DNA from: Pelagibacteraceae bacterium AG-333-C14
GTDB lineage: Bacteria > Pseudomonadota > Alphaproteobacteria > Pelagibacterales > AG-422-B15
Assembly (NCBI GenBank): GCA_003282485.1
Contig: QBZD01000003.1
Location: 6,953 to 70,952 of the forward strand
Length of the DNA: 64,000 nt
Direction of reading: 5' to 3'
The notes below the pieces were generated by a model. That model made no database searches, was not told where the DNA came from, and saw only the letters and a list, made by a program, of their open reading frames with translations. The position numbers and the translations under genes were made by a program. Shown here in pieces: positions 6,932 to 52,198 of this stretch; the first letter of the stretch is position 1, and each line of letters begins with the position of its first letter.

Positions 6932-7624
6932 ATGATTTTTAAACAACTTTTTGACGAGAAATCATCTACTTACACGTATATCGTTGCAAGCGGTAAGGGT
7001 CGTGAAGCCTTAATAATTGATCCAGTAATAGAACATACATCAATTTATACTAATTTGCTAAATGACTTTGATTTAAGGTTGGTAAAAGTTATCGACACTC
7101 ATATACACGCTGATCATATTTCTGCTATGGCAGAATTAAAAGAGAGAACAAATTGTGAAACAGTTATGGGAGAGCACACGAAATCTGAAGTAGTTAGCTT
7201 GAAGGTAAAGGACAATGAAAAGATAAATATAGACGGAATTGTTTTACAAGCTCTTTATACTCCGGGACACACAGATGATTCATATTGTTTTACTATGAAA
7301 GATCGAATTTTCACTGGTGATACACTTTTGATTAATGGAACAGGAAGAACCGATTTCCAAAATGGTAATTCCAAAGATGCTTATCATTCACTTTTCAAAC
7401 GTTTATTGATACTTCCTGAAGAGACTTTAGTTTATCCAGCACATGACTATAAAGGTAATAAGCACTCATCTATTGGCAATGAGAAGAAAAACAACCCGCG
7501 TCTTCAGGTAAACAGTGCTGAAGAGTATGCTGAGATAATGGATAATTTAAATTTGGCTAATCCTCAAATGATGGATATTGCCGTTCCTGCAAACTTAAAT
7601 GGGCTGAAGTTGAGAAAAATTTAA
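6932..7624 (+). CDS. Persulfide dioxygenase, ETHE1-like MBL-fold protein
   Basis: SSTYTY, THIHADH, TPGHT, GRTDFQ, PAHDY, NPRL; no rhodanese fusion. Confidence 0.85.
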   Translation: MIFKQLFDEKSSTYTYIVASGKGREALIIDPVIEHTSIYTNLLNDFDLRLVKVIDTHIHADHISAMAELKERTNCETVMGEHTKSEVVSLKVKDNEKINIDGIVLQALYTPGHTDDSYCFTMKDRIFTGDTLLINGTGRTDFQNGNSKDAYHSLFKRLLILPEETLVYPAHDYKGNKHSSIGNEKKNNPRLQVNSAEEYAEIMDNLNLANPQMMDIAVPANLNGLKLRKI

Positions 7625-7638
7625 TACTTTAAATTAAA

Positions 7639-8625
7639 TTAGTTATTTTTTATAAAAACTTCAATATCATTTGCTAGCTGTTCAGGAATTTCCATGGGTG
7701 GCATATGTCCTACATTAGGATATGAAATTAATTCTACATTTGGAATTTGTTCTACAAAATGATCAATAAATTTTATATCAACAAGATTATCTTCTTCGCC
7801 ATGAAGAATTAGTGATGGGACATTTATTTTTCTCAAATCTAATGGATTAGCGATGAAATTTGTTTCAAGATCTTCGGCAAGCATGCCAATAGCAACCCTG
7901 GTTCCTTCCATCAAAATTATATCATGAAATTGATCCACAAGTTCTTCTGTCACTATAGATTGATCATACACAGTCTGCGAGACTCCTTCTTTAACTAAAA
8001 TTCTAGGTGTTAAAAATTCTAACAATCTAATAAATAATTTTGACTCAATCAGCTCGAATGCTAAGGGAGGGGCATTAATCAATTGAAAATCGTTGAATTC
8101 TTGCTCATTAGCAAAAAATGCAGATCCAACAATAATTAATCCATTCAATTGATCTATATTTCTTAATGCATACCTCCAAGCAATCATACCTCCCATGGAA
8201 TGGCCAACTAAATAGAATTTATCAATTTCTAATATCTCAACGACCTCCTCTATCACTCTTTCATATGCCTCTTGATTATATAGATCTGAATTTACTGCTC
8301 CTGTTAAGCCATGAGCTGGAAGATCTAGAGAAATTATTCTGTATTCATTACTTAAAAAGGGCACTAACGCCTCATAATTAAATAGTGATCCGTTAAATCC
8401 ATGAACCATTACTAAGATCTTACCTTCTTTATTACCTTCATCTCTAAAATGTATTTTAGAGCCATCAGCTAATTCAAGAAATTCAGATGCTCCAATGGCA
8501 TGTTTTGAGATAATTTCACTTTTTGGAATATCAAAATAAAAAGAATTATATAATCCAAATATCAATAAGATAAAAAAAATTATAGAAGTGATTTTGATCG
8601 TCTTAATAATATTTTTATATCTCAT
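7639..8625 (-). CDS. Alpha/beta hydrolase with N-terminal membrane anchor
   Basis: HGF, DLPAHG, GHSMGG nucleophile elbow, GHMP. Start moved to the ATG at 8625 (MRYKN) to avoid a long overlap with tauD. Confidence 0.85.
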   Translation of the reverse strand: MRYKNIIKTIKITSIIFFILLIFGLYNSFYFDIPKSEIISKHAIGASEFLELADGSKIHFRDEGNKEGKILVMVHGFNGSLFNYEALVPFLSNEYRIISLDLPAHGLTGAVNSDLYNQEAYERVIEEVVEILEIDKFYLVGHSMGGMIAWRYALRNIDQLNGLIIVGSAFFANEQEFNDFQLINAPPLAFELIESKLFIRLLEFLTPRILVKEGVSQTVYDQSIVTEELVDQFHDIILMEGTRVAIGMLAEDLETNFIANPLDLRKINVPSLILHGEEDNLVDIKFIDHFVEQIPNVELISYPNVGHMPPMEIPEQLANDIEVFIKNN

Positions 8626-9463
8626 AAGCTGCGATTGTTGTTCGATGTAAAAGTCTCTCTTGACCTTCATAGCCTCCTGTGGCCCTGTGCAAAACACTTC
8701 TGTTATCCCACATAATTAACATATCTTTTTTCCATTGGTGCTTATAAATAAACTCTTCCTGACACTGCCAAGCACTTAATTCCATTAGTAGTTTCATCGC
8801 ATCTTGGCTATTCATGCCATCAATACCAATGATGTAACCTATTGTACCATAAATCCCCTCACGTTTTGTCTCAGGATGCTTCTTTATTATAGGATGTAAT
8901 TGTTTTGAAAATGCTTCATCAGATGCACGTATATCCATACTTCGTCCCATTTCTTTATCTTTGTCTCCATATCCTCCTCCTGGCGAATAAGGAACCAAAG
9001 CTGAATGAATTGCATTTTTACCCTCAAGTTTTTTTCTAAGCGAGGATGGTATTTTTTCTAATGCCATGTGTTGATTGGCAAATAAAGTATCGCCACCTTT
9101 AGTTGGAATAATTTTTCCATAAAGGCAGGTACCTGCTGGAGGGTTTTCTTGAAAACTCCAATCTGTATGCCAATTGTCCGCAAAAATTGGAACCTTCTCA
9201 TCCGCTTCTCTTTTAACAGCAATAATATTTTTTCTACCTGGAATTGGCGCTATGAAAGGATCATTTCCAAATGAACCAAAGCAAAGAGTAAAGCGTTCAA
9301 GAGCATCATCATCTAAAGATTGATTTGGAAAGCTCAGCACGTGGTGCTCAAGCCACAAATCTCTTATATCTGAGATCTGACTCTCCAGGAGCTCTCTTGT
9401 CAAATCAATTCCTGAGATTTCAGCGCCACAAGCTTGATCAGAAATAGCCACATTAAAACTCAT
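8615..9463 (-). CDS. TauD/TfdA family 2OG-Fe(II) dioxygenase
   Basis: WHTD, GGDTLF, WDNRSVLHRA, RLLHRTTI. Confidence 0.92.
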   Translation of the reverse strand: MSFNVAISDQACGAEISGIDLTRELLESQISDIRDLWLEHHVLSFPNQSLDDDALERFTLCFGSFGNDPFIAPIPGRKNIIAVKREADEKVPIFADNWHTDWSFQENPPAGTCLYGKIIPTKGGDTLFANQHMALEKIPSSLRKKLEGKNAIHSALVPYSPGGGYGDKDKEMGRSMDIRASDEAFSKQLHPIIKKHPETKREGIYGTIGYIIGIDGMNSQDAMKLLMELSAWQCQEEFIYKHQWKKDMLIMWDNRSVLHRATGGYEGQERLLHRTTIAAYEI

Positions 9464-9509
9464 AATTAATTAGGCTATTCAATAATCTTCATTTTGTAAA
9501 TGTAGAGAT

Positions 9510-9558
9510 TTTGGTGGGCCCACTAGGACTCGAACCTAGGACAACTCCGTTATGAGCG
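9510..9558 (-). repeat. att-site duplication: 3' 47 nt of tRNA-Ile2 plus 2 nt
   Basis: 49-bp exact copy of 10214-10262 (TTTGGTGGGCCC...TTATGAGCG); identity stops 2 nt beyond the anticodon loop. Confidence 0.95.
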
Positions 9559-9573
9559 TGGCGTATGAACAAC

Positions 9574-9586
9574 TATCAAATGTTTC
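9574..9586 (+). promoter_or_regulatory. Near-consensus IHF site, left arm of the mini-element
   Basis: TATCAAATGTTTC against WATCAANNNNTTR (one mismatch); lies between the core and the arm repeats. Confidence 0.4.
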
Positions 9587-9662
9587 CCACTAATTCTACG
9601 CCCTGTCTTTCTGCCTTTCTTATGGGAGATTATAGCATTCACTGAACACTAAGTGAATCAAA

Positions 9663-9684
9663 ATCCCGCACAGATCCCGCTCTG
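9663..9684 (+). repeat. Tandem 11-bp repeats (putative integrase arm-type sites), left arm
   Basis: ATCCCGCACAG-ATCCCGCTCTG. Confidence 0.75.
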
Positions 9685-9753
9685 TATAGGGAATGTTTTT
9701 AGATTAAAGATCTTAATTATAAATGATAATACTTTGGAACATATAGTCCGTAA

Positions 9754-10080
9754 TCACATAATTTTTCCAGCACATTCGATTATAACATTAGTTACTTCTT
9801 CATTCTCAAAAAGTAAATCTAGCATGGCCTCTTCGTCATCGCCAACACGCTCAACATCCAGCCCAAGTCTCATTGCTTCTTCTAAAGATAGTATTTGTGA
9901 AAGACCGTTTACGTAACAACCACAATACTCATAATGAATGCCAAGCGGTAGCTCTTCTAATGTTTCTTCCATGCATCCATTAAAAATCTCATCAAGAAAA
10001 ATCTTACTAGAGATTTCAGTGTGCGCATTTTGTGGCAGGAAAAATAAGTATAAAATAGATACAATATGTATAATTTTCAT
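9754..10080 (-). CDS. Secreted acidic 4-Cys hypothetical protein (cassette cargo)
   Basis: Signal peptide (MKIIHIVSILYLFFLPQNAHT); C...YCGC...C pattern; upstream TTGTTT-N16-TAAGAT ends 6 nt before the ATG. Confidence 0.8.
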   Translation of the reverse strand: MKIIHIVSILYLFFLPQNAHTEISSKIFLDEIFNGCMEETLEELPLGIHYEYCGCYVNGLSQILSLEEAMRLGLDVERVGDDEEAMLDLLFENEEVTNVIIECAGKIM

Positions 10081-10139
10081 TTGAAAATCTTATATCAGCT
10101 CTTCAAAAAAACAATCTGTAAATATATTTTATACATTTA

Positions 10140-10161
10140 GTCCCGCACAGATCCCGCACAG
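10140..10161 (+). repeat. Tandem 11-bp repeats (putative integrase arm-type sites), right arm
   Basis: GTCCCGCACAG-ATCCCGCACAG; same orientation as 9663-9684. Confidence 0.75.
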
Positions 10162-10198
10162 CTTGATTTCGAAAGGTAGAAATGGGAATTATGACTCG

Positions 10199-10211
10199 TA
10201 AGTCATTGATT
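10199..10211 (-). promoter_or_regulatory. IHF consensus site, right arm of the mini-element
   Basis: Reverse complement AATCAATGACTTA is a perfect WATCAANNNNTTR; overlaps the hairpin ATGACT-TACG-AGTCAT (10191-10206). Confidence 0.7.
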
Positions 10212-10215
10212 TATT

Positions 10216-10292
10216 TGGTGGGCCCACTAGGACTCGAACCTAGGACAACTCCGTTATGAGCGGAGGGCTCTAACCAACTGAGCTATGGGCCC
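10216..10292 (-). tRNA. tRNA-Ile2 (CAT anticodon, lysidine type); elongator Met not fully excluded
   Basis: GGGCCCATAGCTCAGTTGGTTAGAGC-CCTCCG-CTCATAA-CGGAG-TTGTCCTAGGTTCGAGTCCTAGTGGGCCCACCA; cloverleaf with encoded CCA; downstream of rpoD like ileX. Confidence 0.9.
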
Positions 10293-10340
10293 CTTTTGAT
10301 TTGTTATATACAAAAATAAACTTAATTACAGTTTAATAAA

Positions 10341-12356
10341 TTAGTTTTTATCTAAAAAGCTTTTAAGTAGTTTAGCTCTTGTAGGATGCTTTAATTTGCG
10401 TAAGGCTTTAGCTTCAATCTGTCTAATACGCTCTCTGGTAACAGAGAACTGTTGACCCACTTCTTCTAAAGTATGATCTGAATTCATTCCAATCCCAAAC
10501 CTCATTCTCAGTACGCGCTCCTCTCTTGGGGTAAGTGAAGAAAGTATCTTGGTAGTTGTTTGCCTTAAATTAGAATTTATCGCTGCATCTATTGGGATTA
10601 CAGCATTATCATCTTGAATAAAATCGCCTAGGTGACTATCCTCTTCATCTCCTACAGGGGTTTCAAGACTTACTGGTTCTTTTGCAATTTTTAATACTTT
10701 TCTTACTTTCTCAAGAGGCATATTTAATTTAATAGATATTTCTTCTGGAGTAGGTTCCCGACCAATTTCATTTAATAGAAGTCTCTGTGTTCTAACAATT
10801 TTATTAATCGTTTCAATCATATGGACAGGTATTCTAATAGTTCTAGCCTGATCCGCTATCGAGCGAGTAATAGCTTGCCTTATCCACCATGTGGCATAGG
10901 TTGAAAATTTATATCCTCTTCTGTACTCAAACTTATCAACAGCTTTCATAAGTCCTATATTTCCCTCCTGAATAAGATCAAGAAACTGAAGGCCTCTATT
11001 TGTATATTTTTTGGCAATAGAAATTACTAATCTAAGATTGGCTTCAATCATTTCCTTTTTTGCAATGCTTGATTCTCTCTCTCCTTTTTGAACATTACTA
11101 ACAATTCTTTTAAATTCATTTAATGTTAAACCTATATTACTTGCTGAAGCCCTAACCTCGTTCATTATATTCTTGATACTATTTTTCTCTAACTTAACAA
11201 ACTTTTCCCAACCCGACAGTCTAGTAATTTTTCTTAACCAGTATGGATTATTCTCATTACCTACATATTTATCTAAGAACTCTTCGCGCGTGATCTTATG
11301 CTGCATTGCTAAGCGAAGTAATTTACCTTCTAGAGATACGACTTCTTTATTAATTATGTAGAGTTTATTAATTAATTCCTCAATTTTATTTGTGTTAATT
11401 TGAAGACCCTTGATCAACTCAACAACAGCAATTTTTGATAATTGGTAATTTTTTTCTGATCTTGCTGGAAATTCTCTCCCTTTTTCTTGAAAAGCGATTT
11501 TATCTTGTTGAAGCTTTTGTAACTTTTTGAAACTTTTATTTAATTTTTTAAATGTTTCTAGAATGATGGGTTTTAGCTCCTCTTCCATAATAGCAATAGA
11601 AACATTCAACTCATCATCGGAATCTTCATATTCTTCAACTGACTGATCCGCGGAGGTTTCTATCATAGGCTCAGTGTCATCTCCATAAGTTGCTGACTTC
11701 TTCTCAGCTTCTTTTCGCTTTCTAATTTCTTCTTTCTCCTCTTGTTCCTTTCTTTTTTTTGCTTCTTTAATTTTTTTACTAAGTTCTTTTTTATTTGGAG
11801 ATTCTTCAAATAAAGATTCAAGATCTATAACTTCTCTTAGCGTAATTTTTTCATCAATGATATCATCTCTCCAATCAAGTATTGCTTTTAATGTTAATGG
11901 GCTTTCACATAAGCCAGAAATCATAGCTTCCTGTCCAGCCTCGATCCTTTTAGCAATTGCTATTTCTCCTTCACGTGAAAGAAGGTCAACTGTACCCATT
12001 TCCCTGAGATAGAGTTTTACAGGGTCATCTGTTTTTTCTGTTCCTGTTTTAGCTCCAGAAGAATCTTCATCTTTATCATCATCATTATCCGAGTCATCTG
12101 AATCGATAATATCAAATCCTGCCTGTGACAACTTAGTTGTATACTGTTCAATTTGTTCAGAAGTAAATTTATCATCTGGAAATGATTTTTTTATCAATTC
12201 ATTTGTTAGATATCCGTCTTTCTTACCCTGCTTGATTAACTTCTTTATAATAGATTTTTCTAAATCTAATACAGGTCCATCCTGATCGAGTGGTTGAGAC
12301 GTATTAGTCTCTAATACTTGCTTTACTTGCTTTTTTTTTCTGCCGCGCTTTTTCAT
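10341..12356 (-). CDS. rpoD: RNA polymerase sigma-70 factor RpoD
   Basis: [56 protein letters not shown]. Confidence 0.98.
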
Positions 12357-52123: not shown

Positions 52124-52198
52124 TGGCTGGGGCGGGAGGATTCGAACCTCCGAATGCCGCTACCAAAAAGCGGTGCCTTACCGCTTGGCCACGCCCCA
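52124..52198 (-). tRNA. tRNA-Gln (TTG)
   Basis: TGGGGCGTGGCCAAGCGGTAAGGCA-CCGCT-TTTTGGT-AGCGG-CATTCGGAGGTTCGAATCCTCCCGCCCCAGCCA cloverleaf with encoded CCA. Confidence 0.96.

Follow-up and report, generated by a model that had tools for sequence, protein, structure and literature searches.

The DNA analysed here comprises 64,000 nucleotides (the window, positions 6,953 to 70,952 of contig QBZD01000003.1) from the genome of Pelagibacteraceae bacterium AG-333-C14, an assembly of 1.19 Mb in 42 contigs that is 84.5% complete and has a GC content of 33% (genome G000 below). Within this window, a tRNA gene with anticodon CAU is separated from tauD by a 704-bp segment whose two ends carry identical copies of the tRNA 3' part (Table 1). 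The segment encloses one long open reading frame (ORF), framed by two tandem pairs of an 11-mer repeat. We hold with moderate confidence that this segment is a non-autonomous integrative cassette, in which a single cargo gene sits within a split lambda-type attachment (att) site, whose integrase must be supplied in trans, and whose 11-mers would act as a specificity code. On this interpretation, the cassette was made by a lambda-type integrase and was probably moved in trans.

Table 1. Features of the tRNA-CAU locus, with positions numbered from the first nucleotide of the window
Feature	Positions	Strand	Remarks
tauD	8615-9463	-	PF02668, E 1.4e-53; 704 bp further down from the tRNA
attL-side core	9510-9558		Displaced tRNA 3' part, with 47 nt from the tRNA and the next 2 nt downstream; 49/49 identity to 10214-10262
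Left scaffold	9559-9662		Spacer from core to left arm pair; collinear blocks in common with the left end of the tRNA-Lys element of genome G007
Left 11-mer pair	9663-9684	+	ATCCCGCACAG ATCCCGCTCTG; putative arm-type integrase sites
Cargo gene, 108 aa	9754-10080	-	Sole long ORF in the cassette; no Pfam or NCBIfam family
Right 11-mer pair	10140-10161	+	GTCCCGCACAG ATCCCGCACAG; same sense as the left pair
Right spacer	10162-10213		Conserved in 12 cassette right ends with differing arm motifs
Right-spacer block	10164-10181		TGATTTCGAAAGGTAGAA; also in the G007 element
Palindrome	10191-10206		ATGACTCGTAAGTCAT; in the right spacer, overlapping the match to the integration host factor consensus
attR-side core	10214-10262		Within the intact tRNA gene; 49/49 match to 9510-9558
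tRNA gene, anticodon CAU	10216-10292	-	77 nt; insertion target; ARAGORN, Rfam tRNA 69.3 bits
rpoD	10341-12356	-	Gene beside the tRNA

An earlier note on this DNA had reported an exact 49-bp duplication of the tRNA 3' part, two tandem 11-mer pairs in the same orientation, and a single gene with no integrase, and each of these descriptions was borne out. The two core copies lie 704 bp apart, start to start, and the repeat stops 2 nt beyond the 7-nt anticodon loop. An identical core at both ends, with one copy inside a target tRNA that stays intact, is the arrangement of lambda-type att-bounded elements, and the anticodon stem on either side of the loop would provide the inverted core-type flanks of a crossover region. 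Given two identical cores, an intact tRNA gene and a 704-bp circle with a complete attP would result from excision. The target tRNA can reasonably be labelled tRNA-Ile2 (the lysidine type) by elimination, since the other two of the three CAU tRNAs in the genome resemble the initiator and elongator-Met types and a TilS-type gene (PF01171) is present.

Four copies of the 11-mer consensus RTCCCGCWCWG are present in the 64 kb, all of them on the plus strand and within the two pairs. The expected number is 0.03, and none of 100 shuffled sequences yielded four matches. The pairs lie ~92 and ~106 nt from the anticodon loop, so that 2+2 repeats distinct from the core flank it on both sides, at positions that are conserved and with left and right motifs that agree among the cassettes described below. 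For comparisons with other genomes, we used 401 genomes of the order, including 60 of the same family, 341 of the sister family and 47 of the same genus. The paired TCCCGC motif is present in seven of the 401 order genomes, all of this genus, and a reversed control pattern is present in one.

The earlier note had also pointed to sites for integration host factor (IHF) between core and arm repeats. A perfect match to the consensus (WATCAANNNNTTR) does exist at 10199-10211 on the minus strand, but such matches are not enriched, since the window holds 12 of them, 12.7 would be expected, and a count of 12 is attained in 60 of 100 shuffles. The IHF matches therefore carry no weight and were rejected as evidence. 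The match at 10199-10211 falls in a block (TAAGTCATTGA) that is conserved among cassette right ends, and most relatives read GAATT in this block, which leaves them one base short of the consensus. The genome carries three genes of the HU/IHF family.

The 108-amino-acid cargo protein has an N-terminal hydrophobic, signal-like stretch and four invariant cysteines. Its eight relatives, with 74-92% identity, all come from marine metagenome sources, its neighbours in the Atlas are all annotated as 'hypothetical protein', and its AlphaFold model is poor (pLDDT 42). Cargo relatives with ~94-95% identity were found at low depth in four marine or seawater metagenome contig sets, from runs containing ≤0.19 of the words. 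A scan of 9400-10400 for promoters and terminators gave three promoter-like sites against 3.9 expected, and no terminator. One promoter-like site in the left scaffold (9629-9657, minus strand; TTCACT and TATAAT spaced by 17 nt, with a TG) is directed outward at tauD, in a region where the count of such sites is at chance.

The cassette contains no integrase, and searches of the cassette, the genome and the genus yielded no cognate enzyme. Only two tyrosine recombinases, of 305 and 306 amino acids and thus the size of XerC and XerD, are present in this 84.5%-complete genome, and no serine recombinase was found in it. As the sole tyrosine recombinases in the genome, XerC and XerD, or another resident enzyme, could in principle move the cassettes in the manner of Xer-dependent elements. 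We regard this as highly improbable, given that repeats of the tRNA 3' part ending at the anticodon loop, with arms ~100 nt away, have the geometry expected for a heterobivalent integrase rather than that of a 28-bp dif-type site. Furthermore, Xer proteins are not known to have an arm-binding domain.

Displaced fragments of at least four other genes were observed elsewhere in the same genome, at loci C2:89376-90579, C7:28033-29898, C4:23298-25498 with C10:1650-1734, and C2:171459-171504 with C24:154-229. A 43-nt copy of the 5' half of tRNA-Phe, located ~1.1 kb upstream of the gene, is accompanied by GTGGAAACC repeats at both ends. Also present are a 54-nt fragment of transfer-messenger RNA (tmRNA) and fragments of tRNA-Leu(UAG) and tRNA-Thr(UGU) that lie across contig breaks. 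In total, at least five att-flanked islets are present in an assembly that has no integrase. The second tRNA gene of the window, tRNA-Gln (UUG) at 52124-52198 on the minus strand, had no displaced fragment in the genome-wide check.

Related cassettes are present at the same tRNA in other genomes. In a DNA search of the 60 family genomes, many had the tRNA 3' part in additional copies close to the tRNA. When a 41-nt core was sought with up to 3 mismatches, it was found in 44 of the 401 order genomes, all in this family, and in none of the 341 genomes of the sister family. The core is held by 38 of the 47 genus genomes, and 14 genomes, all of this genus, contain 2-4 copies; these 14 of the 38 core-bearing genomes stack one to three cassettes at the tRNA, with differing cargo. 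The loci of 20 relatives, mostly picked for extra hits in the family search, were then compared. Displaced fragments are present in 15 of these, a core gene directly adjoins the tRNA in four (G015, G055, G057 and G027), and the remaining locus (G039) has a cassette-type right end with no detectable left fragment.

A total of 20 core-to-core intervals, mostly with one gene each, were mapped in 15 genomes (the one analysed here and 14 relatives). Their lengths are ~190 bp (G024), 581-811 bp, 956-1589 bp and, in one case, 3577 bp. The bounding core in the relatives is 46-47 nt long, and the identity of the displaced fragments to the tRNA ends at 45-47 nt in 19 of 20 cases and at 60 nt in the other. 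The 17 cargo proteins that were scanned include a 4HBT thioesterase, TylF and FkbM methyltransferases, an acyltransferase-3/SGNH protein, an M48/PDZ protease and several signal-peptide or lipoprotein-like proteins without a family, and none of the 17 has an integrase domain. The cargo genes occur in both orientations. Different cargo genes do sit between the same ends, a point that the earlier note had proposed to check, and the integrase-less unit is the rule at this site.

From the displaced core towards the tRNA, most cassettes follow a common order, in which the core is followed by a conserved spacer of ~70-105 nt, an 11-mer pair, the cargo, a second 11-mer pair, a spacer of ~52-64 nt, and the next core. 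The conserved right spacer holds a palindrome (ATGACTnnnnAGTCAT), and the paired 11-mers lie ~115-150 nt after the previous core and ~65-76 nt from the next. Several types of 11-mer were distinguished across the cassettes, namely TCCCGCAC, GACTGCA/GGCCTGCA, and (T/C)GACGAC/CACGAC. The left and right 11-mers agree within a cassette, even where the neighbour in the same array has another motif.

This agreement was evaluated by permutation with 14 of the 20 intervals. Those left out were G024, a cargo-less unit with a single pair, the composite interval G046b, the 3.6-kb G051a, two FkbM intervals with no recognizable arms, and the G031 interval, which duplicates G021b. The 7-mers shared between the left and right arms of the same cassette sum to 51, compared with a mean of 1.1 per pair between cassettes, and none of 20000 permutations reached 51. 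With the eight cassettes that carry unrelated cargo, the observed left-right sharing was reached by 4 of 40320 permutations.

Two cargo-less units were also found. The G024 unit (L037:8046-8315, ~190 bp) consists of a core, a left spacer, one TCCCGC pair, a right spacer and the tRNA, and a ~226-bp unit in G046 (L036:10691-10993) has a similar layout with a heavily mutated left core. The left scaffold of the window is 77% identical to that of this G046 mini-cassette. These units could be either deletion products formed between two direct arm pairs or empty vehicles. In many relatives, the ~30 nt after the displaced core (GCTTTAACCTTTAAGCTAGG..., for example L039:9030-9060) resemble, by eye, the reverse complement of the tRNA D-arm region. 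Judged from this resemblance, the attP scaffolds may derive from a whole tRNA-like sequence.

Comparisons between species reveal both empty sites and recent transfer. The junction between tauD and the tRNA is occupied by the window cassette in G000 and by another cassette (lipo108) in G017, the closest of the relatives compared (rpoD identity 90.8%), and is precisely empty in G015. Empty sites, which the earlier note had proposed to look for, do exist. Cassettes with the thioesterase gene are 97.5% identical between G052 and G021 and 99.5% identical between G021 and G031, where the adjacent rpoD genes are 80.6% and 91.9% identical, respectively. Similarly, G033 and G049 share an FkbM cassette with 98.4% identity, whereas their rpoD genes are 79.9% identical. 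In these shared cassettes, homology begins at the first base of the left core, the DNA further left is unrelated, and identity measured in 50-nt segments drops from 96-100% to 62-86% directly beyond the tRNA. In addition, two variants of the T-stem core sequence, CTAGG and CCAGG, travel with the cassettes. The outermost fragment in G021 has one variant and the working tRNA has the other, and G046 exhibits the reverse, a pattern in line with insertions that each carry in a tRNA 3' part of their own.

An element of the same layout that does carry an integrase was found in a genome of a sister genus (G007). This 6.6-kb element occupies tRNA-Lys(UUU) and comprises a 45-nt displaced core, a scaffold, three copies of GACGTCA, a 627-aa AAA_25 (RepA-like) gene, a 70-aa HTH_17 gene, a 336-aa tyrosine integrase gene, two copies of TGGACGTCA, a spacer and the tRNA. 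The integrase has ~50 residues, with no family match, ahead of its core-binding and catalytic parts. Several blocks are common to this element and the window cassette. The sequence CTTTCTRCCTTTC..TTAT..GGGATTATA appears ~50 nt after the core, A(C/G)(T/G)AAGTGAA immediately precedes the arms, GGGAATGT immediately follows the arms, and TGATTTCG(G)AAAGGTA(A)GAA lies in the right spacer. The window block CTTTCTGCCTTTCTTATGGGAGATTATA at 9607-9634, in the left scaffold, is among the sequences present in the G007 element, and its score is reached by 1 of 2000 shuffles. Moreover, the cargo gene of the window sits at the place and on the strand of the G007 integrase gene.

Relatives of the G007 integrase (E ≤1e-10) are present in 32 of the 401 order genomes, where the weakest matches, of ~317 amino acids, may be Xer proteins. 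In ten cases a tRNA (Met, fMet, Arg or Lys) lies immediately upstream of the start of the integrase gene, and in all ten a paired short motif, with members ~11 nt apart, was seen by eye to precede the integrase start. Cassettes at different tRNAs are also linked by their arms and cargo. In G019 and G034, TCCCGC pairs and the same arm-spacer sequence frame cassettes at tRNA-Lys. The G019 cassette (L254:1366-2661) encodes a secreted protein of 375 aa, with 70% identity to the cargo that a tRNA-Ile2 cassette with arms of the GACGAC type carries in G021 (L044); this protein family has a C-terminal coiled-coil-like part. The tRNA-Lys and tRNA-Ile2 genes of the genus have GGAGTTGTCCT in common beside the anticodon loop, and one integrase lineage might therefore accept both targets.

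Nearly all of the 60 family genomes have at most two hits to PF00589, and no extra integrase was found near a tRNA-CAU fragment in them. Extra PF00589 hits in G042, G017, G005, G003, G007, G044 and G058 were inspected and set aside, as none lies beside a tRNA-CAU fragment or a TCCCGC pair. Fragments of PF00589 genes at contig edges in G017 and G044 were likewise discarded; they have no tblastn match to the G007 integrase and by eye resemble the C-termini of XerC and XerD. A search of genome contigs with the G007 integrase matched only its own record. In metagenome contigs, the core combined with the N-terminal motif of the integrase gave no hits, and the 25-nt tRNA end was found at no fewer than 120 loci, with one of this clade among the matches listed. 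Cultured phages yielded only generic tRNA-like hits to query positions 697-783.

In IMG/VR, two scaffold patterns and two patterns that combine arms with an integrase start gave no hits. A 30-nt core was found there in two contigs, one of which (L054) contains a full tRNA-CAU gene, and the other of which (L055) has the match outside called tRNAs and amid phage-like ORFs. A 17-nt arm pair, scanned without a chance control, was found in three contigs of high GC content. An unrelated viral contig of high GC content (60%) in IMG/VR (L057:1-260) has a tRNA 3' end, followed by ~125 nt, three 11-nt-phased TCCCGCAC repeats and the start of a 347-aa tyrosine integrase with a weak Arm-DNA-bind_4 hit (E 0.0044, below the cut-off). 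Its repeat is the same motif as in the window, at the expected arm position but with the opposite sense relative to the tRNA, and the resemblance may be a coincidence. Another integrative element, within the genus, was observed in G042 (L091:3195-9180), where ~5.9 kb between tRNA-Gly(GCC) and a 37-nt partial copy of this tRNA contain two ORFs, one of 193 aa that matches PF00589 and one of 439 aa. The integrase family of this element differs from that of G007.

Several observations weigh against the interpretation of the segment as a cassette that is moved by an integrase in trans. Integrases of the G007 type are absent from all 46 genomes of the cassette's genus that were searched, and no integrase-bearing element with a tRNA-Ile2 core or TCCCGC arms was found among the 60 family genomes, the 401 order genomes, IMG/VR or the metagenome contigs covered. 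The scaffold similarity with G007 is short, with blocks of 29 and 20 nt that are each equalled by 1 of 2000 shuffles, though their positions match. The 11-nt-phased repeat ahead of tRNA-adjacent integrases is clear against shuffles in only two of the ten cases (reached by 2 and 4 of 500) and weak in three (32-34 of 500). Furthermore, a circle or excision has no read-level support in the metagenome data compared, which are assembled contigs only. One ambiguous joint (9571 to 10209) appears in these data, in a single contig with 37 nt on its shorter side, and the contigs reveal neither a circle nor an empty site of this strain.

A further point of this kind concerns old cassettes. The lipo108 cassette, found in G051, G017 and G029, has diverged to the same extent as rpoD (79-89% compared with 80-93% identity), its arms are decaying, and in G017 the left core is decaying as well. 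Such decay implies that the sites are not under selection where they stand, and that they are unmaintained once a cassette is resident. As to the earlier proposal that all cis-acting sites are kept, both arm sets are present in young cassettes, but cores and arms of old ones decay.

Decaying cores and arms, together with a genus that lacks the integrase, would also be expected if the cassettes were fossil scars, from which the integrase and replication genes of a G007-like element of 6-8 kb had been deleted in place, leaving immobile remnants whose ends survive because the deletions are recent. In the G007 family, a distance of 15-20 nt separates the integrase start from the tRNA-proximal arm pair, and the window cargo gene sits in this place on the same strand, and the cargo-less units of ~190-226 bp resemble deletions between direct arm pairs. 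We nevertheless consider this explanation unlikely, because all 20 intervals in the 15 genomes are small and include no intermediate with an integrase fragment, and because cassettes of 0.7-0.8 kb are 97-99% identical across species with 80% rpoD identity and different left neighbours. Near-identical cassettes in diverged species imply that the small unit, or something ending exactly at the cores, has moved.

Movement of this kind might instead reflect homologous recombination only, such that, after a first insertion made by an integrase, cassettes were exchanged by RecA-type recombination through the 46-nt cores and the tRNA, or by a single crossover of a circle, and the arms are relics. Two further points against integrase-mediated movement bear on this alternative. 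Cassettes with FkbM genes move between distant species without recognizable arms, and recombination within identical cores would give boundaries as sharp as those observed. Between the species, identity is complete only in the cores and the tRNA, and it is there that the transferred tracts end. The lack of an integrase also fits. However, cassettes have the same arm motif at left and right where neighbours in one array have another, conserved spacers are common to cassettes with different arms and to the integrase-bearing element, and a double crossover cannot insert a cassette at an empty site. We therefore judge homologous recombination as the only process to be decidedly unlikely.

Taken together, varied cargo, empty sites and near-identical transfer bounded by the cores favour the mobile attP-plus-cargo cassette of the earlier note over the decayed scar that it argued against, but the cognate integrase that it presupposes was not found. 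An autonomous version exists in part, in that the same layout with an integrase is present at tRNA-Lys in the sister genus, but none was detected at tRNA-Ile2 in the 60 family genomes.

On the integrase-in-trans interpretation, an arm-binding tyrosine integrase would recombine a small circular attP with the tRNA-Ile2 gene. This attP would consist of a 46-nt tRNA-like core, two spacers and two 11-nt arm-site pairs to which the integrase is predicted to bind, and crossover would occur at the anticodon loop. The cassette would thereby supply a new tRNA 3' part and displace the old one by 704 bp. A relative with an integrase, for instance the 6.6-kb satellite-like tRNA-Lys element of the sister genus, would have to provide the enzyme in trans, and the 11-mer motif would be the address by which cassette and integrase are paired. 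Without renewed movement, resident cassettes would decay. A broader scheme, which we offer tentatively and consider possible rather than probable, is that SAR11 bacteria share a distributed, integron-like exchange system without a resident integrase. In such a system, single-gene attP circles would carry 11-mers as interchangeable address codes, integrases would reside only on rare satellite-like elements, one lineage of which possibly serves both tRNA-Lys and tRNA-Ile2, and cargo, arms and cores would be reshuffled.

Near-identical, att-framed cassettes that lack an enzyme and are shared across ~20% divergence in core genes constitute a concrete and testable route for the exchange of single genes in streamlined genomes. 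The flexible genes of this streamlined group turn over quickly, and the cassette family suggests how tiny SAR11-type genomes swap single genes. The cargo consists mostly of secreted or envelope-modifying proteins, a kind expected to matter for interactions with phages and grazers. In addition, cassette-specific arm motifs in a shared scaffold form a natural test set for the specificity of the arm-binding domains of tyrosine integrases.

The resemblance to integrons, proposed in the earlier note, lies in the arrays of small, mostly single-gene cassettes that differ between close relatives. Unlike integrons, the array has no intI, attI or Pc, the only recombinases, of XerC/XerD size, being encoded elsewhere in the genome, and is flanked by rpoD with the tRNA and by tauD, and its cassette boundaries are direct 46-49 nt tRNA copies rather than attC hairpins or imperfect inverted repeats. 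Membership among integrons was therefore rejected, and, because no defining integron feature is present, the term 'integron-like' is an analogy only.

Close agreement is seen with tRNA-targeting integrases of the lambda type (P4- or lambda-like, and Islander-type islands). As in these systems, the core restores the tRNA 3' part and has its boundary at the anticodon loop, direct arm repeats lie ~90-130 nt from the crossover on both sides, and the G007 relative encodes an HTH_17 excisionase-like protein along with the integrase. In contrast to such islands, the window cassette has no integrase between its att sites or elsewhere in the genome, is only 704 bp long with one gene, and belongs to a family whose arm motif varies between otherwise similar scaffolds.

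Cis-mobilizable elements (CIMEs) of streptococcal ICE families (ICE, integrative and conjugative element) are bounded by att sites, lack integrase and transfer genes, and are thought to depend on a complete element. They are kilobases long and are mobilized in cis after tandem accretion with an ICE. The window cassette is likewise flanked by the att sites of an integrative element, with a layout like that of G007, and has no integrase or transfer genes. It differs in that none of the 15 cassette arrays has an integrase-bearing neighbour, in its single-gene units and in its streamlined marine host. An autonomous element at tRNA-Ile2 that could act as a CIME-type mobilizer was not found in the 60 family genomes.

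Cultured pelagiphages integrate into tRNA-Cys, tRNA-Leu and tRNA-Arg genes, with no mention of tRNA-Met or tRNA-Ile in that report (bioRxiv 10.1101/410191). A study of genomic islands in SAR11 found no canonical mobile elements and, in four islands, a partial tRNA repeat that marks the insertion of gene cassettes (Molina-Pardines et al. 2025, Microbiome, PMC11796062). The available portion of that article describes no arm repeats, shared scaffold, arm classes, interspecies tracts or integrase-bearing relatives. Tycheposon islands of Prochlorococcus stack at tRNA genes with partial tRNA copies between the elements, push older elements inwards, and hold additional partial tRNAs as well as degenerate remnants of elements (Hackl et al., bioRxiv 10.1101/2020.12.28.424599). 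In the accessible part of this preprint, which does not mention SAR11, tycheposons are described as integrase-carrying elements and their fragments, whereas the cassette has a complete att frame around a single gene and lacks an integrase.

In Pelagibacter and in other marine bacteria, small satellites that bear an integrase have been described as virion-encapsidated integrative mobile elements, VEIMEs (Eppley et al. 2022, PMC9618062). The window cassette contains none of the VEIME genes named in the sections of that article available for comparison. More generally, the cassette lacks a recombinase of its own and the replication or packaging module by which tycheposons and VEIMEs are recognized; its G007 relative has such genes. 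An enzyme-less but complete att frame, cassette-specific arms in a shared scaffold, sharp interspecies tracts and a link to an integrase-bearing element are not described in the portions of the literature that we compared. Judging from the same sections on VEIMEs, the 6.6-kb G007 element, with its tyrosine integrase, HTH_17 protein and RepA-like helicase, fits the Pelagibacter satellites. A satellite of this kind would be the likeliest integrase donor.

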